A DNA stretch of 38,179 nucleotides from the IMG/VR virus record IMGVR_UViG_2585427736_000016; one strand, 5' to 3'. Positions within the stretch are counted from its first letter, which is position 1; each line of letters starts with the position of its first letter. Shown here one piece after another: positions 4,477 to 38,179 of this stretch. The DNA is from a virus (Duplodnaviria > Heunggongvirae > Uroviricota > Caudoviricetes). The notes below the pieces were generated by a model. It had not been told where the DNA came from and made no database searches. It saw nothing but the letters and a program-made list of their open reading frames with translations. Both the position numbers and the translations under genes were made by a program.

Positions 4477-5081
4477 TAAGCAGCCGCTCCTTCTAATTCG
4501 TCTCGTCTGATGTTGTAAACGTCCTGCGCTTTGTGCTGCTCCGGTGTGCCTTCGAGCATCTTCCACGCTTTGGCGAACGCCTGTTTAAGCTCTTCTACGG
4601 TGTTTTTCTGCATTGCTGCGTCAGTGAATGCTTTTAGAACCTGTTCAGGTGTAGGTGATGGTTTTGATTGCTTTGCTGCTGCGTTCTGCTGATGTTTATG
4701 CTCGTTTGTATCTGCATCTTTCGCATCATCAATGCCGAGCAAACCATTGAGGCAATACTTGCGTGCATAAGAGCTTGTGGCTCCAGTAACTTGTGCAGAA
4801 TCCATTCCTTTCTTGCTTTCTTCCTCTCGTGCAAGAGCGGTTGCCGTATGACTGTTTTCGCCATCGGTAATAGTTGCCGTGGCTTTCACGTAATACCGAT
4901 CACCAATCAACACAACTTCATCGCTGATTGATAAAAACAGGCCATTCAGTAACGGCTTAACGCCTTCAAGAATGTCTTCGCAGCTTCTGTATTTATATTT
5001 ACCGAATGAGTTGTACTGATTCTTTGGCGCGTTCAGATTCTCCTGAATAGCTGCCAGTCTTGCGTAAAATTCTTTGCTCAT
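4476..5081 (-). CDS. erf: Erf-family single-strand annealing recombinase, about 201 aa
   Basis: Translation from MSKEFYARLAAIQENLNAPKNQYNSFGKYKYRSCEDILEGVKPLL... matches the P22 Erf N-terminus as recalled; track ORF starts 10 codons earlier at a TTG. Confidence 0.8.
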   Translation of the reverse strand: MSKEFYARLAAIQENLNAPKNQYNSFGKYKYRSCEDILEGVKPLLNGLFLSISDEVVLIGDRYYVKATATITDGENSHTATALAREEESKKGMDSAQVTGATSSYARKYCLNGLLGIDDAKDADTNEHKHQQNAAAKQSKPSPTPEQVLKAFTDAAMQKNTVEELKQAFAKAWKMLEGTPEQHKAQDVYNIRRDELEGAAA

Positions 5082-5091
5082 ATGATTGTTC

Positions 5092-5262
5092 TCAGAACGG
5101 ACACGGCCCAAGGAAATAACGCTGATTTAATACTTCAGTCTTTGCCGCATTTAAAAATACGCGAACACCTTCACGATCTCCCTTCTGGCGATACATTAAC
5201 GCCTGCTGCGTGTACATGCGTCTCTGTAACTTGCTCTCCTTCACTGTGGTTGCAAGTGACAT
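5092..5262 (-). CDS. small ORF in the arf position upstream of erf, 56 aa
   Basis: Hand-translated (MSLATTVKESKLQRRMYTQQALMYRQKGDREGVRVFLNAAKTEVLNQRYFLGPCPF), below the track size cutoff; AAGGAGAT SD 7 nt upstream of the ATG at 5262. Confidence 0.4.
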   Translation of the reverse strand: MSLATTVKESKLQRRMYTQQALMYRQKGDREGVRVFLNAAKTEVLNQRYFLGPCPF

Positions 5263-5341
5263 GAATATCTCCTTCGTTACCGATTAAATCTTTCATTTGA
5301 CGAATGAATTCTTCGTCTGACCAGTTATCTGTAAAACTCAT
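5171..5341 (-). CDS. small ORF in the kil position, 56 aa
   Basis: ATG at 5341 overlaps the cIII stop (ATGA); overlaps the arf-position ORF by 92 nt in another frame, so one of the two calls may be wrong. Confidence 0.35.
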   Translation of the reverse strand: MSFTDNWSDEEFIRQMKDLIGNEGDIHVTCNHSEGEQVTETHVHAAGVNVSPEGRS

Positions 5342-5508
5342 GGACGGCCTTGTTGTTTCAAAATATCCCAAAGCTTTTCGAGCAAACTTTTCATTCTTGG
5401 TTGTTTAAAGTCTGCTCCGGTTAAAATATTTTTTCGTGAATGCTGTACCGATAAAATCGGGTTGAAAGGGCGAACCGATGCCGCCCCTGCAATAGCGAAC
5501 TGTTGCAT
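5338..5508 (-). CDS. cIII: CIII-like regulator (FtsH/HflB protease inhibitor), 56 aa
   Basis: MQQFAIAGAASV...KSLLEKLWDILKQQGRP resembles lambda CIII (MQYAIAGWPVAG...ITRKLRDGWKRLIDILNQPG) as recalled; AAGGAG SD. Confidence 0.8.
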   Translation of the reverse strand: MQQFAIAGAASVRPFNPILSVQHSRKNILTGADFKQPRMKSLLEKLWDILKQQGRP

Positions 5509-5572
5509 AGGATGCTCCTTATATTTGATTGCATAACGAAAACGCCTCAAGTGAAGCGTTATTGGTATGCAT

Positions 5573-5598
5573 ATAAAAAAGCCCTCACACTGGAGGGC
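5573..5598 (-). terminator. rho-independent terminator in the PL operon upstream of cIII (tL-type)
   Basis: Minus-strand RNA GCCCUC-cagugu-GAGGGC followed by UUUUUU (plus A-run 5575-5580). Confidence 0.6.
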
Positions 5599-5734
5599 AA
5601 AGAAGATTTCCAATAATCAGAACAAGTCGGCTCCTGTTTGGTTACGAGCGACATTGCTCCGTGTATTCACTCGTTGGAATGAATACACAGTGCAGTGTTT
5701 ATTCTGTTGTTTATGCCAAAGATAAAGGCCACTA

Positions 5735-5832
5735 TCAGGCAGCTTTGTTGTTCTGTTTACCAAGTTCTCTGGCAATCATTGCCGCCGCTCGTATTGCCCA
5801 CACCATTGATTCTTATCAATAGTCGTAGTCAT
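5735..5832 (-). pseudogene. ral: ral (restriction alleviation) remnant broken by an internal out-of-frame deletion
   Basis: One frame gives MTTTIDKNQWCGQ then YERRQ-stop (5832..5776); the other frame on overlapping DNA gives ...WAIRAAAMIARELGKQNNKAA-stop (5806..5735). Both match the N- and C-terminal parts of lambda Ral as recalled. Confidence 0.5.
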
Positions 5833-5902
5833 ACGGATAGTCCTGGTATTGTTCCATCACATCCTGAGGATGCTCTTCGAACTCTTCAAATTCTTCTTCC
5901 AT
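5816..5902 (-). CDS. 28-aa highly acidic Tyr-rich micro-ORF
   Basis: Hand-translated MEEEFEEFEEHPQDVMEQYQDYPYDYDY; GAGGTG SD 6 nt upstream; ends in tandem stops TGA-TAA and shares its frame with the ral C-terminal fragment. Confidence 0.35.
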   Translation of the reverse strand: MEEEFEEFEEHPQDVMEQYQDYPYDYDY

Positions 5903-5956
5903 ATATCACCTCAAATAAGTTGTTTGCTGCGAAAGTAAATACGCTTAAGTTACCTG

Positions 5957-6094
5957 TTATTTATCCCACCAAGTTCCGTATCTATCTATCCAGTTACACC
6001 AATCATCGACACTCCATTTTGTTGTGTCGCATTTTGGCAACTGGCATGAATATCTACCTTCTTTGTAAAGTCGGCGTTTGACTTTCTTGAGCAT
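5957..6094 (-). CDS. hypothetical small Cys/Trp-rich protein, 45 aa
   Basis: Hand-translated MLKKVKRRLYKEGRYSCQLPKCDTTKWSVDDWCNWIDRYGTWWDK; GAGGTGAG SD; begins 8 nt after the N stop. Confidence 0.45.
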   Translation of the reverse strand: MLKKVKRRLYKEGRYSCQLPKCDTTKWSVDDWCNWIDRYGTWWDK

Positions 6095-30110: not shown

Positions 30111-31412
30111 ATGGCTACTTGGCAACAAGGAATCAACTCAGGCGGCTTTCTTGCTGGTATCGGTGGGCAAAACTCAAATGCGCCAAAGGCAAGTGATGTA
30201 AGTGAGGCGTTGGCCTATATTCGCCAGAACAACGAAATGGAGCGCTCAGGTCGCAATAACATCGGCCTTCAGGCGTTGCAGGGGCTTGGTAGTGTCGCTC
30301 AAACATATCAAGCCGCAAAGCAACAGGAAGCGGATGCTGCATTCCAAAAAGAATATGCGGCAGCCATCCAGTCAGGTGATCGGCAGCAGGTGCGAGATCT
30401 GATGACCAAATATCCTGGTCAATTAGAGAAGATTCAGTCTGGTATGAAGTGGGCAGACGAAGACCAGCGCAATTCTATCGGCACCTTAGCGGCTGGCGCA
30501 CGCCTTGCTGCCTCGTCTCCAGAAGCAATGCAATCATGGCTGCAAAACAACGCCAAGGAACTGACTCGCGTAGGTGTTGACCCTAACAGCGTTGCTCAGA
30601 TGTATCAGCAGAATCCTTCAGGATTTGGTGAGTTTGTTGATCACCTTGGGATGGCTGCTCTTGGTCCGATTGATTACTTCAATGTTCAGGACAAGATGGC
30701 TGGTCGTGAGATTGATCGCGGAAAACTTGCAGAGACAATCCGCAGCAATCAGGCTGGAGAAGCACTAACAGCGCGTGGTCAGGACATCCAGATACGTGGA
30801 CAGAACATCAGCGCACAGAATGCTGCTCTTTCCCGCGAAATACAAAGAGCAGAATTACAAGAAAAGGCTCTGGACAGACAGATAGCCAGAGAAAGCAATC
30901 AGTTAAAGCTTGAAGAGCTAAAACAGAAACAGGTAGATGTTCGGCAAAAGGCTGACATAGCCCGCGCTGACAGGCAGGCCGCCGCTCAGGGTGCAGTTGA
31001 TACGTTCAGCACAGCGCTTGATTCTCTCAACGAGATAGAGCAAAGCCCCGGCCTTTCAAAAGCAGTAGGAATTCGCTCAGCGTTTCCAACAGTTCCTGGC
31101 TCTGATGCGGCTAACTTTGAAGCAAGGCTCGACACCTTTAAAGCTCAAACTTTCCTTCCTATGGTGCAGTCCCTTAAGGGTATGGGGGCTCTTTCAGATG
31201 CTGAGGGTAAAAAATTATCCGATGCGGTTGGTGCCCTAAGCCCCAAAATGAGCGAAAAGGCTTTTCGTGACTCTATCGGAAAGATTAGAAATCAGCTTGA
31301 AAGCAAGTTGAGCACTGTTAAAAAACAGTTTGATTATCAGGAGCCAGTACAGAATACGCCAGGACAACAATCTACTGCTGGCAGTAACTTTTCTTCACTA
31401 TGGGGTGATTAA
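30111..31412 (+). CDS. ejection protein, gp20-like, 433 aa
   Basis: Position and composition (Gln/Ala-rich, coiled coil). Confidence 0.65.
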   Translation: MATWQQGINSGGFLAGIGGQNSNAPKASDVSEALAYIRQNNEMERSGRNNIGLQALQGLGSVAQTYQAAKQQEADAAFQKEYAAAIQSGDRQQVRDLMTKYPGQLEKIQSGMKWADEDQRNSIGTLAAGARLAASSPEAMQSWLQNNAKELTRVGVDPNSVAQMYQQNPSGFGEFVDHLGMAALGPIDYFNVQDKMAGREIDRGKLAETIRSNQAGEALTARGQDIQIRGQNISAQNAALSREIQRAELQEKALDRQIARESNQLKLEELKQKQVDVRQKADIARADRQAAAQGAVDTFSTALDSLNEIEQSPGLSKAVGIRSAFPTVPGSDAANFEARLDTFKAQTFLPMVQSLKGMGALSDAEGKKLSDAVGALSPKMSEKAFRDSIGKIRNQLESKLSTVKKQFDYQEPVQNTPGQQSTAGSNFSSLWGD

Positions 31413-33409
31413 TGGCTAAAGCATGGAAAGATGTTATCGCCTCTCCACAGTATCAGGCGTTAGCACCAGAACAAAAAGCGCAGGCTCAGGAGCAATACTT
31501 CAATGAAGTCGTTGCCCCGCAAGCCGGAGAAAATGCAGAGCAGGCTAAGCAAGCTTTCTATGCTGCCTATCCATTGCCATCTGTGCAGCCAGTGGAGACA
31601 CAACAACCAGTAGCACAGCAACAACCACAGCAAAGTGGATTTATGTCTGATCTTGGTGAAGCAGTAAAAGAGACTGGTCGCGGACTGGTGCAGGCTGGCG
31701 TGAACGTGGCAAACATACCTGCATCAGTTGCCGATGCTGTAACAAGCGCGGCTGCTTGGGCTGGCGGTAAACTCGGTATTGGCGATGGTACATATCAACC
31801 AGCACCACGAGTAACAACGCAGGGATTAGAGCAGGACTTTGGCCTTCAGCAAGGTGCGCTGACTCCACAAACGACAGAGGGAAGGGTATTTGCTGAAGCA
31901 TTGCCTTACCTCACTCCTGCTGGCGTTGAGAGAGCGGCGGCACAGGCACCAACACTTGCTGGTCGAATTGCTCAGGGGGCAACTCGACTTCTCGCAGAAA
32001 ACGCAGTTGGATCACTTGCTGCAAACAGTATGAAAGATGATGCGGAAGCACTCGCTACCGATTTAGGTGTTGGCGTTCTGGCAGGCGGCGCTATTAACGC
32101 TGCTGGACGTGGATTAGGTGCTGCTTATCGTGGCGTTCGCGGTGCTATTGCGCCAGAAGCGCAGCAAGCTATCAGATTTGCAGAGCGTGAAGGAGTTCCT
32201 CTGCACACCACAGACCTGTTACAACCCACTTCCCGCGTCGGAAAAATGGCGCAGACTACAGCAGAAAATATCCCTCTGGCTGGCACAAGCGGAATGAGAG
32301 CAACGCAACAGGAAGCGAGAAGCCAGTTGGTGCAGAGATTTGCCGATAAATTCGGTGAGTATGATCCAGCGGTTGTTATTGACAGCCTTAAAGCGAAAAC
32401 ATCAGGAATTCGTCGTGCCGCCGGTAATCGACTGGAGCAGGTTCAGAATGCTATGGCTGGAGTAAACATTCAGCCTGCGCGAGCAATTCAGCAGATTGAT
32501 ACAGAAATATCTAATCTGCAGAAGCTTGGTAAGGTAGCTGATAACGAGACAATTTCAAAACTTCAGTCATATCGTGATGAGCTTGTTCGCAATGCTGGCC
32601 CTGATGGTCCGGTTAATCTGGATTTGAAGCAATTAAGCGATCTGCGCAGCCAGTTCAGAATGGACGTGAAGGGGGAGCGACCAGTGTTACCAAACCGTTC
32701 CGATGCCGCCATTCAACGTGTTTACAAGGCGATGACCGACGATATCAATGGTGCCATTGGTCAGAATCTTGGCAACGATACTCTTCGTAAATATCAGCAG
32801 GCCAATGCCGTCTACGCTGACGAAGCGGCGAAACTAAAGAATACCAGGCTGAAGAATGTTCTCATGAAAGGCGACCTGACGCCGGAAGTTGTGAATAACA
32901 TGCTATTCAGCAAGAACAAATCGGAAATTAAGACGCTGTATAACTCAGTTGGTCGCGTTGGAAGAGCGCAAATGCGCAATGGCATCATTGGAAAGGCGAT
33001 GGAGAAATCTGGCGGATCCCCTGACCAGTTCCTTCGACAGCTTAACATCCTGCAAAACCAAACGGGTATCACATTTAAGGGGCAGGATGCTGCTTACCTG
33101 AGGGGATTGAAAAACTACCTGCAATCCACGCAGCAGGCTGCAAAAGCGGCAGTAACAACACCAACAGGGCAGCAAACCATCCCGTTCATTATTGGATATG
33201 GGACGGCAATGAACCCGGCGACAACTGGCGCAGCAGTAAGCTACGGCCTTCTTGCTCGCGCCTATGAGAGCGAGTCATTCAGAAATGCAATGCTCCGAAT
33301 GGCAAACACCCCACGCGGATCAACAGCCTTTGAGAAAGCAATGCATCAGGCACAAAAGGCAATTAACGCCCTGACTCAAGGTGCCAAGTCTGATGCGTTG
33401 TCAGAATAG
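31412..33409 (+). CDS. ejection protein, gp16-like, 665 aa
   Basis: Position and length; ATGA overlap with the gp20-like gene; Ala/Gly-rich. Confidence 0.65.
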   Translation: MAKAWKDVIASPQYQALAPEQKAQAQEQYFNEVVAPQAGENAEQAKQAFYAAYPLPSVQPVETQQPVAQQQPQQSGFMSDLGEAVKETGRGLVQAGVNVANIPASVADAVTSAAAWAGGKLGIGDGTYQPAPRVTTQGLEQDFGLQQGALTPQTTEGRVFAEALPYLTPAGVERAAAQAPTLAGRIAQGATRLLAENAVGSLAANSMKDDAEALATDLGVGVLAGGAINAAGRGLGAAYRGVRGAIAPEAQQAIRFAEREGVPLHTTDLLQPTSRVGKMAQTTAENIPLAGTSGMRATQQEARSQLVQRFADKFGEYDPAVVIDSLKAKTSGIRRAAGNRLEQVQNAMAGVNIQPARAIQQIDTEISNLQKLGKVADNETISKLQSYRDELVRNAGPDGPVNLDLKQLSDLRSQFRMDVKGERPVLPNRSDAAIQRVYKAMTDDINGAIGQNLGNDTLRKYQQANAVYADEAAKLKNTRLKNVLMKGDLTPEVVNNMLFSKNKSEIKTLYNSVGRVGRAQMRNGIIGKAMEKSGGSPDQFLRQLNILQNQTGITFKGQDAAYLRGLKNYLQSTQQAAKAAVTTPTGQQTIPFIIGYGTAMNPATTGAAVSYGLLARAYESESFRNAMLRMANTPRGSTAFEKAMHQAQKAINALTQGAKSDALSE

Positions 33410-33498
33410 CTTCGCAAACACCAGGAACGCGCAAAAACCAAATATGTAGAACGCAATATTCAGCATATCTCTTTGCATAAATCCTCCGTAACTGATAG

Positions 33499-33759
33499 TT
33501 AGCTGCTGTCTTTTTTATATAGCTCTTTGAGCGTATCAAAGACAATTTTCTTAACCATATCAGATTGTTGTTCTGCCATACGCTCTGCATCGTCAATGTA
33601 AACAGATGCAGAGCTTTGTTTAGCCAATGATTCTTCAATCGCTGCAATTATCTCTGAGTTCAGCGACCTGTTATTCATCTTCGCACGCTGCTTAATTTTC
33701 GCGTGGAGTTCATGCGGAAGTCTCAAGTGAAACTGCGCCTCGTCGTATTTGCTGTACAT
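33499..33759 (-). CDS. mnt: Mnt-type ribbon-helix-helix repressor, 86 aa
   Basis: ...MNNRSLNSEIIAAIEESLAK...DAERMAEQQSDMVKKIVFDTLKELYKK parallels P22 Mnt (...NGRSMNSELLQIVQDALSK...DAERLADEQSELVKKMVFDTLKDLYKK) as recalled; divergent from the tailspike. Confidence 0.75.
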   Translation of the reverse strand: MYSKYDEAQFHLRLPHELHAKIKQRAKMNNRSLNSEIIAAIEESLAKQSSASVYIDDAERMAEQQSDMVKKIVFDTLKELYKKDSS

Positions 33760-33880
33760 CCTTGATGCCTCACCAGTTGGGTGGAATGGCATCGTAACCT
33801 ACTGGATAAATACTCAATAGTACCATTTCGGTATTCAATCACATCATGGTTGCATCATATCATTCGTCTGGAGCAATGAA

Positions 33881-35698
33881 ATGTCAGATATCACCGCAAA
33901 TGTTGTGGTAAGCATGCCTTCTCAACTCTTCACTATGGCTCGTTCTTTTAAAGCCGTAGCTAATGGAAAGATTTATATCGGAAAAATTGACACTGATCCG
34001 GTAAATACTGAAAACCAGATCCAGGTTTATGTGGAGAACGAAGACGGCTCTCATGTTCCTGTATCGCAACCAATCATCATTAACGCTGCTGGTTACCCGG
34101 TATATAACGGACAGATCGCCAAGTTCGTAACTGTGCAAGGCCATTCTATGGCTGTTTATGATGCATATGGGGCGCAGCAGTTCTATTTTCCTAATGTGTT
34201 GAAGTACGACCCTGACCAGGGAATTATCAGGTTAAAAGAAGAAATTGCGAAAGATGATGGAGAGAAATATATCGGAATATGCCCTGACGTTTTTACGCTC
34301 AGAACAATTGAGCCATCATTCGTCGGGCAAAATATAACTGTTCGTGGATACTACTCTGACACACCCGGGCTTGGGGGAGGAACGTTTATAGCCTTTTCCA
34401 GTTCTGAAGCTGACGATGGTGTGAATATTTTTGTTACCCCCGGCGGTAAGCGATGGAAGAGAGCAGGAAGCCACATCGATATTCCGGTAGAGAACGGTGG
34501 CATGATGACATCATGTACGGCTGAGCAAAACAGTGAAGCCTTTGAACGCCTGACTGCATGCCTTCCATATGAAGGAGGTACGCTCAGACTCAATGGATTT
34601 TACGATATTAAGTATGGCGCTATCGTGCCTCCACGTGTCACGCTGGAGGGGTGCGGTATGGATTCCTGTGGATTAATTAAAACAGGTAACGATATTAAAA
34701 CCGTTCCGGATCGCATGTGGCAGGGTGTACCACACAGCTTCTCCAAAGACTTTATTGTTGCGGTAGATATGGATAGTGACACATCAGGTGATTTAAGCGG
34801 GACACAAACAAGAAGCACCAGAATAATTGGATTGAGTATTCTAAATACTGCGCCCAATCCTTGTGATTACGGGATATATAGCGCTATCAGTTACAATGTG
34901 CGCCTTCAGGACCTGTATATTCATAGGGTGAAAACCGGTTATCGCACTAGTGATAGTTGGTTGCAGACATGGGAAAACATTACTATTCAGGATGTCGTTA
35001 CTGGAGTTAAAATCGAAGCAGGTGGAACCACATATAATTTAAACAATATTTATGTGAAAACATGTTCAGGTGTTGCATATGATTTTAATAACATTACATA
35101 TAGCAGCCTGACTTGTTTGGCTGCTGACTTCGTTAATGGTACTGGCTATAAATTTAAAGATTGTACTGGAGTGAATCTATCTGGATGCGGAAGCGAAGAA
35201 AGCACTGGTAAAATATTTGATATAAATGGTAGTCGAATTAACGTAACTGCATTTAGAGGGGTTAATCATCATGATGGAGGAGTTGAAGCTGTATCTCTGG
35301 AATCGTGTTTCATCTCATTGGTTTCATCTCATTTTTCTAGTTACTCTGGAGGCTCATCTAGCAAATACATATATCTTAATGATGCAACTGCAAATTTTAA
35401 TGGTACGGTAATTCCCGACAACACCACTGATTCTATTAGATGGGGTAGTGGGCAGAGCAGGATCAACAAGGTTGATTCAGGCGGCACCTATAGTATAACC
35501 GGAAACTCATCATGGACTGCATTATGCAGACTTGAGTCAGGATATATAACGGTTCTATCAGTATCACCACCCACGGGAGATACAACTAATTTCCCGTTTG
35601 GCACCAAGTGGGAATTGCTTGGTCAGGTTTCTACCGGACCGTGGAAGTGGACATACGTATCAACTGGTGAATGGAAGGTATCCGCAACTACCACGTAA
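33881..35698 (+). CDS. tailspike protein (conserved P22-type head-binding domain plus distinct beta-helix receptor-binding domain), 605 aa
   Basis: First about 113 aa ([42 protein letters not shown]...NVLKYDPDQ) match the P22/Sf6 N-terminal domain as recalled; remainder is Gly/Asn/Thr/Ser-rich repeats in AT-rich DNA. Confidence 0.9.
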
Positions 35699-35700
35699 AA

Positions 35701-35726
35701 AAAAGGGGCTTTCAGCCCCTTTTTAT
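35701..35726. terminator. bidirectional rho-independent terminator between convergent tailspike and acyltransferase genes
   Basis: AAAAAAAA-AGGGGCT-ttc-AGCCCCT-TTTTTAT; A-run one side and T-run the other. Confidence 0.7.
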
Positions 35727-36779
35727 CTAATATCTGAATTTGTTTGATATCTTTTTCCCAATATCCATTGCTGGTTTTTCTATCGCAATAAATGATATCA
35801 GTCCAGCAATAAGTGATAGTGCTATGCATAAAACTTGATTTAAGTACAGGTTTATATCAGGTAATAACCTGAATGTTATCTGCTGTATTAAAAATCCCCA
35901 CAAGTAAACGCCATATGACACATCATGTTTTATTCTTACTGATTTTATTATTTTTGTTGTTGATAAATACACGAAAAATGTACATGCGCAAAAGTAAAAA
36001 AGCATATGCTTGAGTGTTGGGTCTGACACAAAATTATATAATATTGCAAATCCTATTGGTGCATGTGGTGAAATGTATATTTTGTCCTTGTTTATAGCAT
36101 ACAATGCGCCAAGAGCAAAGCATGGAGCCATTAAAAACACATCTGCATTATCGTTATTTATAAAAATTAATTTGTTCCATCCCAATACTGGAAGCGCTAT
36201 TATTGATAAGCATATGATGCTAGGTATTATTCTTCCTCTGCTCTGAGTTATCATGTAGCATGCTAGGAGCACGACATAAGATGCAACTTCATATGGTATT
36301 GTCCATAAGGAACCATTAACTGAGCTTTTATATATATTTTCCTCAAAAACACCAGGAAGAAAAAATTGCATATCCAAATATGAGCTTTTAAATAGATAGC
36401 TGTACGTCAGTGTATCTTTTAAATAAGATGTCATTGAGTGCGTTGTAAGTAATGGTCCAACAATGAATGTCGCGAATAATAAAACAAAAATGAATGCGGG
36501 GAATATTCTAAAAAATCTAGATGAAATAAAGTGTGGTATGTTGCGCGTTGTTAATAAACTATTAGTTACAAGCATTCCACTAATAAAGAAAAATATTTTT
36601 ACAGCAATGGAACCAGTATATGTAAATGTGAAAACAGACTGAACCGGCTCCTGGGCTCCATCAGAATTTGCAAGATAATATGAATGGGCAAATATTACAG
36701 AAATTGCACAAAAAATACGTATTAAGTCAAGGTTATTGTTATCCCTTTTTAGCGCATCTTTGACCAACATAAAAATCAC
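35727..36779 (-). CDS. membrane acyltransferase-3 family protein (O-antigen O-acetyltransferase-like serotype-conversion gene), 350 aa
   Basis: About 10 predicted TM helices; N-terminal ...DLIRIFCAISVIFAHS... with conserved His/Arg typical of the OafA/Oac family; strongly AT-rich; sits between tailspike and int as oac does in Sf6. Confidence 0.8.
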   Translation of the reverse strand: MIFMLVKDALKRDNNNLDLIRIFCAISVIFAHSYYLANSDGAQEPVQSVFTFTYTGSIAVKIFFFISGMLVTNSLLTTRNIPHFISSRFFRIFPAFIFVLLFATFIVGPLLTTHSMTSYLKDTLTYSYLFKSSYLDMQFFLPGVFEENIYKSSVNGSLWTIPYEVASYVVLLACYMITQSRGRIIPSIICLSIIALPVLGWNKLIFINNDNADVFLMAPCFALGALYAINKDKIYISPHAPIGFAILYNFVSDPTLKHMLFYFCACTFFVYLSTTKIIKSVRIKHDVSYGVYLWGFLIQQITFRLLPDINLYLNQVLCIALSLIAGLISFIAIEKPAMDIGKKISNKFRY

Positions 36780-37021
36780 CTAACTGTTTATTTTGAAGAG
36801 CATTGTATCATCAGATAGCCGCACTTTCACTCCCATCAGATCACCGTCAGAAATTATCATAAGCGCCAGTTCATCATGTGCAATTGCGTGCAAACAAAAT
36901 ATTCACTGCAGAGAGATTAAGTAGATTGATTCTACTGGGTTGGCATGAGACAAAACTGAGACACAGAAAGCTTTGCACTGGATTGCAAGGCTTTGTGCTC
37001 TTCGATAGTGGTTAAGGTGGA
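36780..37021. other. intergenic region downstream of int, expected location of attP (core not identified)
   Basis: Non-coding 242 bp between int 3' end and the acyltransferase start; direct repeats ATCAGAT (about 36810 and 36836) and dyad GCAC-N16-GTGC; no tRNA-like core seen. Confidence 0.3.
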
Positions 37022-38179
37022 TCACCCCCCCTTTTCATCAAGCCAGTCCGCCCACCACTGCATCATTTCTCTGCGCTTATCGAGATACTGAGCATGGTTG
37101 TAAATCCCGCGCACAGAACCGCCGTTAGCATGTGCCAGTTGCACTTCAATGGCGTCGGCGGGCCATTCGTGCTCGTTCATAATCGTGCTGAATTCATGCC
37201 TGAATCCGTGACCGCTTTCCAGACCTTCATAGCCGATTTGTTTGATCACAAGTAGCACCGCGTTCTCGCAGATTGGCTTTTTCTTATCGTTGCGCCCGGC
37301 AAAAACAAACTCTGATACTGGTTTGGTGATAGAGCTTAGCGTAGTGAGAAGTTCAACCACTTGGTCTGACATCGGGACCACATGAATTTTGCGTCCCTTC
37401 ATCACACTGGCGTCGATGGTGATAATCCTGTTTTCAAAATCGACGTTCTTCCATAGCATGGAACGAAGCTCTTTTGTTCTGAGGGCTGTGTAGCGTAAAA
37501 CTTTGGTCGCAATGAGCGATACGATGCTTCCTGAAAATGTTGCCAGTGCTTTGTTAAATGCCGGGATCTGGTCTGCAGGAAGAAACGGGAAGTTTTTCTT
37601 GCGGTATCCCTTCATGGCGTCAGCAAGGTCAGGTGCCGGGTTATATTTAGCCCTACCAGTGACAATAGCGTAACGGAAAACCTCGCCGCATCTTCTGCGG
37701 GCTTTGTTGGCTCGCTCCATTGCACCGCGATCTTCAAATCTGCGGATTACTTCAAGAAGTTGCATCGGCTCAATATCCTGAATTTCAAGGCCGCCGATGA
37801 TGGGTAAAATGTCGTCATCAAACATTTTTGCAAGTTCATTTGCATAGCCTACTGACCAGACTTGCTTCTTGTGCTCGTACCATTCCTTGTAAATGGCGCT
37901 AAAGGAATTGTTGTTAGACGAAGCCTTTTTCGCTTTTACCGGATCGATGCCAACCGAGATGTCTTTCCTCGCGGTCCATGCTTTATCCCTTGCCTCCTGC
38001 AAAGTCATAAGCGGATATTTTCCGACGGTCAGGATTTTCTCCTTACCGTCAATCTTGTAGCGAAGCTGCCATACCTTTTTCCCTGACACAGGGACATAAA
38101 GGTACAGGCCATTACCATCGAGAAGGCGGTATGGTTTTTCTTTCGGCTTTGCTGCTTCAATCTGCTTAACGGTGAGCAT
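37022..38179 (-). CDS. int: tyrosine site-specific integrase (P4/IntA-like arm-binding N-terminus), 385 aa
   Basis: N-terminus MLTVKQIEAAKPKEKPYRLLDGNGLYLYV (DUF4102-type) and C-terminal catalytic region (...HGFRHEF..., ...RGIYNHAQY with the catalytic Tyr); ATG is the last codon of the window, immediately after the xis stop in a circular reading. Confidence 0.9.
   Translation of the reverse strand: MLTVKQIEAAKPKEKPYRLLDGNGLYLYVPVSGKKVWQLRYKIDGKEKILTVGKYPLMTLQEARDKAWTARKDISVGIDPVKAKKASSNNNSFSAIYKEWYEHKKQVWSVGYANELAKMFDDDILPIIGGLEIQDIEPMQLLEVIRRFEDRGAMERANKARRRCGEVFRYAIVTGRAKYNPAPDLADAMKGYRKKNFPFLPADQIPAFNKALATFSGSIVSLIATKVLRYTALRTKELRSMLWKNVDFENRIITIDASVMKGRKIHVVPMSDQVVELLTTLSSITKPVSEFVFAGRNDKKKPICENAVLLVIKQIGYEGLESGHGFRHEFSTIMNEHEWPADAIEVQLAHANGGSVRGIYNHAQYLDKRREMMQWWADWLDEKGG

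Follow-up and report, generated by a model that had tools for sequence, protein, structure and literature searches.

A tailspike and acyltransferase cassette of an Escherichia coli prophage, shared between two phage genera and probably directed at O-antigens of the O107/O117 type

The viral DNA analyzed here (Caudoviricetes; IMG/VR record IMGVR_UViG_2585427736_000016; 38,179 nucleotides [nt] in full, referred to as the window) carries a tailspike gene followed by a convergently oriented acyltransferase gene. Both lie in the last 4.8 kilobases (kb), where an Escherichia coli prophage of the Sf6/HK620-like (P22-like) type has its right end. We found that the receptor-binding part of the tailspike and the acyltransferase belong to one horizontally mobile unit, as a first-pass annotation of the sequence had proposed. 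In our view, this unit is likely to serve host recognition and seroconversion in the manner of the Sf6 and phiV10 cassettes: the spike would cleave the O-antigen and the acyltransferase would acetylate it, thereby excluding further phages. Its specificity is probably for E. coli O107/O117. It is a known kind of module, one that recognizes the sugar coat of the cell and then alters it, and does not represent a new kind of system.

Evidence for a single mobile unit comes from a phiV10/epsilon15-like prophage (locus L023) that matches window positions 34358 to 36981 at 98.3% nucleotide identity over 2,624 nt. A further locus, L029, matches positions 34679 to 36981 at 98.5%. Neither locus shares anything else with the 38-kb window, and the L023 match therefore outlines one travelling piece composed of the receptor-binding domain, the terminator, the acyltransferase gene, and ~210 nt upstream of the latter. 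The tailspike of L023 comprises 700 amino acids (aa), the first 215 of which are 88% identical to phiV10 gp25. In L023, the cassette gives way to holins, a GH19 endolysin, and a DUF2514 protein (an Rz-like spanin in phiV10) rather than to an integrase. In L029, the tailspike open reading frame (ORF) at 5061 to 6044 encodes just 327 aa; since similarity starts at window position 34679, the tailspike there has exchanged or lost its N terminus, whereas its C terminus and the acyltransferase remain intact. The same genome contains a second, diverged member of the receptor-binding family (L028).

On the right side, similarity to P22-like relatives restarts at 36938 to 37030. The sequence TGAGACAAAACTGAGACACAGAAAGCTTTGCA occurs at this edge in 11 loci regardless of cassette type, and it is present in the window as a single copy, with 0 expected by chance. 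The 66 nt surrounding it (36935 to 37000) match 1,387 of the 5,426 complete E. coli genomes at ~90 to 95% identity; where the matches carry any annotation, it places them at the edge of intS. The motif coincides in part with a weak hairpin located downstream of int (z of −2.06 on the minus strand and −0.63 on the plus strand). The element may represent an int terminator or a recombination hot spot. In locus L006 (10426 to 13488), a cassette of glycosyltransferase (gtr) genes ends with the same motif, directly followed by host genes (PBP family, aminotransferase, and radical SAM). This prophage is therefore integrated elsewhere in the host genome and has its int gene at the opposite end, as in the P22-type rather than the Sf6-type layout.

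On the left side, 58 phage records match the DNA, and in every one of them the similarity ends at window position 34219/34220. This is the end of the head-binding domain, which the first-pass annotation had correctly described as ~113 aa terminating in LKYDPDQ: Pfam family Head_binding (PF09008) aligns to aa 1 to 113 over the full length of its profile (positions 1 to 113; E value of 9e-67; 222.8 bits versus a cutoff of 24), and the residues NVLKYDPDQ/GIIRLKEE place codon 114 at nt 34220. The receptor-binding family that follows is joined to three different N-terminal anchors, namely, PF09008, the Kuttervirus-type PF18668, and a ~215-aa module of the phiV10/epsilon15 type. Since the phage matches stop at the domain boundary and the family sits on three anchors, position 34220 is a true, old exchange junction that is common to all relatives.

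The exchange at the domain boundary, as originally proposed, does not, however, describe how this DNA departs from its nearest relatives. To locate the breaks, seven P22-like loci were compared (L001, which is the prophage of E. coli VE-T9, and L002, L004, L005, L006, L008, and L009). Residues 114 to 303 were 98 to 100% identical in six of these and 91 to 92% identical in L004, exceeding the conservation of the head-binding domain (84 to 99%). Residues 304 to 395 were 99 to 100% identical in L005 and L001, 91 to 92% identical in L004, L008, and L009, and 56% identical in L002 and L006, which carry gtr genes. From aa 396 onward, identity to all P22-like relatives except VE-T9 was 30 to 55%. The breakpoints thus fall inside the predicted beta-helix, at ~34790 (L002 and L006), ~34900 (L008), and ~35050 to 35090 (L005, and gradually in L004 and L009). 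The break at ~34790 coincides with a low-confidence loop of the structural model described below (model residues 192 to 197).

The DNA had also been said to turn AT-rich from ~34220 and to remain equally so through the acyltransferase gene, and neither statement was borne out. The guanine-plus-cytosine (GC) content was 0.437 for the head-binding domain, 0.461 for positions 34220 to 34789, 0.404 for 34790 to 35698, and 0.324 for the acyltransferase gene, compared to 0.478 for the rest of the phage. To the left and right of 34220, GC was 0.437 and 0.453 in 300-nt flanks and 0.436 and 0.462 in 500-nt flanks, the two sides differing by under 0.03, with GC rising where a fall was expected; segment GC, flanking intervals, and likelihood change-points all failed to reveal a step at this position. 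Likelihood-based binary segmentation of 31400 to 38179 returned steps solely at 33433, 35720, and 36935. These delimit a moderately low-GC block (0.424) that contains the Mnt-type gene and the whole tailspike gene and a strongly AT-rich block (0.329; 35720 to 36935) that corresponds exactly to the acyltransferase gene and its upstream region. The tailspike gene averages 0.42 to 0.43 and its receptor-binding part about 0.43. Within it, GC dips locally to 0.34 to 0.39 at ~34980 to 35430 and returns to 0.45 to 0.47 over the last 300 nt. The dip, at ~34800 to 35400, was considered as a second junction and rejected: it does not mark one, because the same position of the gene dips in all diverged variants of the domain, even at 30 to 56% identity. 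The acyltransferase gene, on the other hand, is supported as compositionally foreign, its GC at third codon positions being 0.277 and the lowest value among 1053-nt segments elsewhere in the phage being 0.415. GC across the region is therefore not uniform, although its steps lie elsewhere than initially assumed.

Taken together, these data bear on the idea that a single exchange at 34220 introduced a uniformly AT-rich block, consisting of the whole receptor-binding domain and the acyltransferase gene. The common end of the P22-like phage DNA matches at 34219/34220 and the three anchors would agree with it. However, the tailspike gene has a GC content of 0.42 to 0.46 on both sides of this position and the acyltransferase gene one of 0.32, residues 114 to 303 are nearly unchanged in six of seven relatives that hold four other cassettes and diverge only from 34790 to 35090, and the cross-genus match begins at 34358. 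We regard a single exchange of this type as very unlikely.

The receptor-binding part of the tailspike was modeled with AlphaFold (AF2) as a monomer (aa 114 to 605) from an alignment of 23 homologues, yielding a predicted local distance difference test (pLDDT) score of 87.9 and a predicted template modeling (pTM) score of 0.85. In full-length numbering, the model consists of a linker, a small beta domain (~aa 130 to 208), a capping helix (~aa 214 to 227), a long parallel beta-helix, and a C-terminal beta-sandwich (~aa 519 to 603). The predicted fold is a right-handed parallel beta-helix that is most similar to solved tailspikes, in line with the structural check suggested by the first-pass annotation and with a receptor-binding role for the C-terminal domain. 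The description of this domain as beta-helix-like and rich in Gly, Asn, and Thr was accurate for the fold, Gly (11.6%), and Thr (10.2%) but not for Asn, which accounts for just 5.5%, with Ser (10.4%) taking its place. A precomputed label assigns the family to PF27114 (Phage_tail_beta). Six acidic residues are invariant across the 23 homologues: D290, D296, and D298, which fall within aa 114 to 303, and D344, D358, and E439. By conservation, they are candidate catalytic carboxylates. Residues 114 to 303 are also 31 to 40% identical to N-terminal regions of Kuttervirus tail spikes. Sequence matches in the PDB to Sf6 gp14 (7sg7; E value of 2e-63) and the P22 tailspike were limited to aa 1 to 124, and a PDB sequence search with the receptor-binding part gave no match past aa 195. 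The alignment to WceF (6tgf) covers just aa 7 to 195.

The convergent gene had been annotated as an acyltransferase, which was confirmed by a match to Acyl_transf_3 (PF01757; E value of 2e-25; 89.9 bits versus a cutoff of 31; aa 15 to 327 on profile positions 2 to 318 of 326) and to PHROG 3333 "O-acetyltransferase" (E value of 3.5e-37). The originally given end, 36779, corresponds to the GTG codon with which the longest ORF opens, but translation probably begins at the ATG at 36770; this ATG follows AGGTGA and is also the start in homologues and in the RefSeq annotation. Essential motifs of the AT3 family are R/K-X10-H in the first transmembrane helix and RXXR in the first cytoplasmic loop (PMC9558356). 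In an alignment of 11 sequences, including Sf6 Oac, both R-X10-H and RxxR were conserved, with R21, H32, and R91 invariant and R88 nearly so (numbering of the 350-aa ORF). The protein (347 aa) contains a single Pfam domain and no SGNH domain, and a crude Kyte-Doolittle scan yielded 10 hydrophobicity peaks, several of which overlap. A PDB sequence search retrieved no matches. The three closest relatives (50 to 55% identity) are all prophage borne and located beside a tailspike or tail fiber gene in three phage architectures, and they are convergent with that gene wherever one is called.

The acyltransferase gene can be described as moron-like: it is AT-rich, has a terminator of its own, and may also have its own promoter. 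Of the properties expected of a moron, the aberrant GC block and the terminator were observed. The RNA of the terminator hairpin between the convergent genes folds with −15.7 kcal/mol on both strands (z of −4.35 and −3.19); it was revealed by folding, a consensus terminator scan having failed to list it. A candidate extended −10 promoter, GTGAAA-17-TGaTACAAT, extends from 36830 to 36802 and was recognized by its match to the consensus.

To relate the spike to the modification gene, 15 loci were classified according to the C-terminal variant of the tailspike and the genes downstream of it. Five variants paired one-to-one with five modification modules, with no mismatches in the 15 loci. The window-type C terminus was accompanied by the acyltransferase described here (L001, L022, L023, and L029; aa 396 to 605 are 96.7 to 99.5% identical to those of the window), the second variant by gtrA, gtrB, and GtrC-like genes (L002, L006, and L027), the third by an unrelated codirectional AT3 gene (L005, L025, and L026), the fourth by a further codirectional AT3 gene (L008), and the fifth by a convergent AT3 gene whose product is 48 to 49% identical to the window acyltransferase (L004 and L009). 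The codirectional acyltransferases of L005 and L008 were rejected as members of the same lineage (20 to 21% identity). Two of the five pairs were found on both anchor types and phage backbones. The specificity of the spike being matched to the modification gene, as suggested in the first-pass annotation, is thus circumstantially supported by this covariation, by the position of AT3 relatives beside tailspikes, by the preservation of the pair in more than one phage genus, and by the precedents of Sf6 and phiV10.

An alternative is that the two genes are merely linked, the acyltransferase gene being an independent moron lodged where the phage tolerates insertions, past the late-operon terminator, and its product acting on another target, e.g., enterobacterial common antigen, colanic acid, or some other glycan. 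AT3 proteins do act on a wide range of surface glycans (PMC9558356), relatives have gtr or unrelated AT3 genes in the corresponding slot, genes that are 28 nt apart will covary without selection, and expression of an acyltransferase-like gene from this slot of phage Kapi1 left the lipopolysaccharide (LPS) profile unchanged (bioRxiv 10.1101/2021.04.09.439263). Nevertheless, all of the slot occupants in relatives belong to O-antigen modification classes (AT3 or a gtrA, gtrB, and GtrC-like set), this AT3 clade is found beside tailspikes in three unrelated phage architectures, and the same layout has been reported or annotated as matched in Sf6 and phiV10. We therefore judge linkage without function unlikely. 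Since linkage alone can generate covariation and the LPS of Kapi1 was unchanged, functional matching of spike and modifier is put forward as a proposal.

The probable host range was derived from the genomes that contain the cassette. The receptor-binding part is present in just 4 of 5,426 complete E. coli genomes, and all four possess a wzx/wzy cluster of the O107/O117 family, the wzy of which occurs in only 20 of the 5,426. The probability of this coincidence is ~1e-10 if genomes are treated as independent draws; because the four hosts are related and look clonal, the independent evidence for the O type amounts to about two events. E. coli VE-T9 hosts a 99.9% identical copy of window positions 34200 to 37000, and its WclY differs from that of the three hosts with gtr-type cassettes (O117 type) by exactly R194L, P285S, and T339A (wclY and wzzB of the VE-T9 O-antigen cluster were examined; Table 1). 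Three substitutions in one glycosyltransferase have been given as the difference between O107 (GlcNAc) and O117 (Glc) (PMC7685785). On the basis of these substitutions, the review statement, and one strain name, VE-T9 is probably O107 and the other three hosts are probably O117, one of them being O117 by its strain name. The wzzB gene of VE-T9 is a pseudogene with an internal stop, and its O-antigen chain length may be unregulated. One O117 genome, APEC-O117H42 (NZ_CP172331.1), contains two tailspikes of the receptor-binding family (proteins H34 and P0027): a P22-type spike followed by gtr genes and a 699-aa spike (58% identity) from another prophage.

These host differences could also mean that the variable C-terminal third tracks the backbone O unit of the host (GlcNAc in O107 and Glc in O117) and not the phage modifier. 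The three WclY substitutions separating VE-T9, with its window-type cassette, from the gtr-type hosts, and their agreement with the published O107/O117 difference, speak for this reading. However, the comparison is one of a single genome with three clonally identical ones, the identity of the O107 allele goes back to one strain name, and there are five C-terminal variants for just two backbone types. This explanation appears highly improbable to us. It is doubtful, but conceivable, that aa 396 to 605 read decorations or single-sugar differences of O107/O117, with each variant functionally matched to its modifier and the pairs acting as exclusion and counterexclusion alleles. If so, Sf6-like and phiV10-like phages, as competitors for a single rare host serogroup, would exchange the five spike-modifier pairs among themselves, and cassette exchange with breaks inside the beta-helix would be selected and not a by-product of linkage.

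Returning to the preferred reading, a seroconversion cassette of the Sf6/phiV10 kind, we propose the following sequence of events. The P22-type head-binding domain would anchor the spike on the virion, while the beta-helix would bind the O107/O117 O-antigen and most likely hydrolyze it, with cleavage giving the phage access to the outer membrane. The O107 and O117 units consist of neutral and N-acetylated sugars, which would favor a hydrolase over a lyase. After lysogeny, the convergent AT3 acyltransferase would be produced and would acylate the O-antigen, drawing on a cytoplasmic donor; O-antigen modified in this way would no longer be bound or cut by spikes of the same type, resulting in superinfection exclusion. 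The exchanged unit extends from within the tailspike gene to the conserved motif ~45 to 75 nt past the int stop codon. Swapping could occur by homologous recombination, for which the tailspike gene would supply the left arm through its conserved first two-thirds (5′ side), the right arm being provided by the boundary motif or by int; an exchange between these arms would always keep the C-terminal third of the tailspike with its modification gene or genes.

It should be noted that several points weigh against this reading. The two genes are separated by just 28 nt, and plain physical linkage would produce the observed covariation equally well. The O-antigen cluster is identical in three of the four hosts, and flanking proteins have the same accessions in all four. 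The acyltransferase resembles the enzymes of the model phages only distantly: identity to Sf6 Oac is 27%, and phiV10 Oac, with which orthology was rejected, can hardly be aligned to it (31% over 65 aa; E value of 0.001). Promoter-like sites in the region are no more common than in shuffled sequence. Finally, the acetylation target and the activity of the tailspike are suggested by context and precedent, and its catalytic residues are named as candidates only.

The arrangement of the prophage right end is summarized in Table 1. The order of tailspike, convergent oac, and integrase, as read from the window ORFs and compared with the Sf6 annotation, corresponds to the Sf6-type seroconversion layout. 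The window stops at the start codon of the integrase gene, and no tRNA genes were found in it; the copy in VE-T9 adjoins the tRNA-Arg gene argW. In this copy (L001, 1 to 5700), the ejection genes are preceded by an IS30 element, the Arc-like and tailspike genes are separated by a gene for an HNH endonuclease, and the first ~15 residues of the head-binding domain differ (MPEQLYNVVVSQPSQ). The Mnt/Arc-type protein of the window (97 aa) combines an Arc-like N-terminal domain with an Mnt C-terminal domain. Its gene is solitary, lying between the ejection genes and the tailspike gene without an arc or ant partner, and the moderately low-GC block begins just upstream of it, at 33433.

Table 1. Coordinates of features at the right end of the prophage and of the O-antigen genes examined in E. 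coli VE-T9
Feature	Position	Strand	Basis or remark
gp16-like ejection protein	31412-33409	+	Window ORFs and profile matches
Mnt/Arc-type repressor	33499-33792	-	Window ORFs and profile matches
Tailspike, 605 aa	33881-35698	+	ORF
Tailspike aa 1-113, P22-type head-binding domain, virion anchor to tail hub	33881-34219	+	PF09008
Tailspike aa 114-303, predicted linker, small N-terminal beta domain, capping helix, and first beta-helix rungs (proposed left arm)	34220-34789	+	
Tailspike aa 304-395, predicted central beta-helix rungs with D344 and D358	34790-35065	+	
Tailspike aa 396-605 and stop, predicted last beta-helix rungs and C-terminal beta-sandwich (variable third)	35066-35698	+	
Cassette as delimited by the other phage genus: most of the receptor-binding domain, terminator, acyltransferase gene, and upstream region	34358-36981	.	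L023 match
Bidirectional intrinsic terminator between the convergent genes	35700-35724	.	A-run, GGGGCT/AGCCCC stem, T-run
Acyltransferase, convergent to tailspike (longest ORF)	35727-36779	-	Window ORFs and Pfam
AT3-only acyltransferase (347 aa), predicted integral-membrane protein and putative O-acetyltransferase acting on the O-antigen	35727-36770	-	PF01757, PHROG 3333
Acyltransferase upstream region travelling with the cassette	36771-36945	-	Inside the 98.3% L023 match
Right-boundary motif TGAGACAAAACTGAGACACAGAAAGCTTTGCA (proposed right arm)	36946-36977	.	Conserved at the cassette edge
IntS-type tyrosine integrase	37022-38179	-	PF00589, PF22022, PF13356
wclY and wzzB of VE-T9	L017 20344-21405 and 26326-27303		

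If the assignment to O107/O117 is right, this cassette adds an E. coli case to the small set of tailspike and O-acetylase pairs known from Sf6 and phiV10. It also offers a direct example, at 98% nucleotide identity, of a spike-modifier pair that moves as a whole between two phage genera. Such cases can help predict host range and serotype conversion from prophage sequences, and the positions of the breaks suggest points at which chimeras may be tolerated in tailspike engineering.

Among known systems, both the Sf6 and the phiV10 tailspike/oac pairs have been described in a review (PMC9558356). Sf6 (tailspike gp14, oac gene 15, and int gene 16) has the same order and orientation of a gp16-like gene, tailspike, convergent AT3-only acetylase, and IntS-type integrase, together with a terminator between the convergent genes, a very similar head-binding domain, and an argW-type integration system. 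It differs in its receptor-binding domain, which is unrelated in sequence past aa 124, and in its host, Shigella flexneri instead of E. coli O107/O117. In phiV10 (Uetakevirus), the tail fiber/tailspike gp25 is convergent with Oac (gp26), which is annotated as an O-antigen acetylase for superinfection immunity, and it is a phiV10-like prophage (L023) that carries the window cassette. Unlike in the window, the receptor-binding domain of phiV10 is O157 specific and longer, and the window backbone is Sf6/P22-like and not epsilon15-like.

A further comparison is with Escherichia phage Kapi1 and with the gtr-type conversion modules of P22/BTP1. The phages concerned are P22-like and temperate, integrate at argW or a related site, and carry O-antigen modification genes between tailspike and int or att. 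Kapi1 has the acyltransferase-like hyp24 in the same slot but shares with the window DNA just part of the head-binding region, and gtr modules glucosylate rather than acetylate, with relatives of the window carrying the gtrA, gtrB, and GtrC-like set in this slot. The solved tailspike depolymerases Belisarius gp86 (24qi; Acinetobacter phage), AS12 gp42 (6eu4), and CBA120 TSP2 (5w6p) are 14 to 19% identical to the window tailspike; they act on other substrates, and their catalytic residues are not transferable to it. The tail spike of the Kuttervirus (Ackermannviridae) Salmonella phages STML-13-1, BRM 13313, and pSC20 is 56% identical over aa 127 to 603 and therefore belongs to the same receptor-binding family (PF27114), but it has a PF18668-type N-terminal module, comes from a virulent myovirus, and is not adjacent to a modification gene. 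For STML-13-1 (L003, 2545 to 4437), this degree of identity hints at a related O-antigen target.

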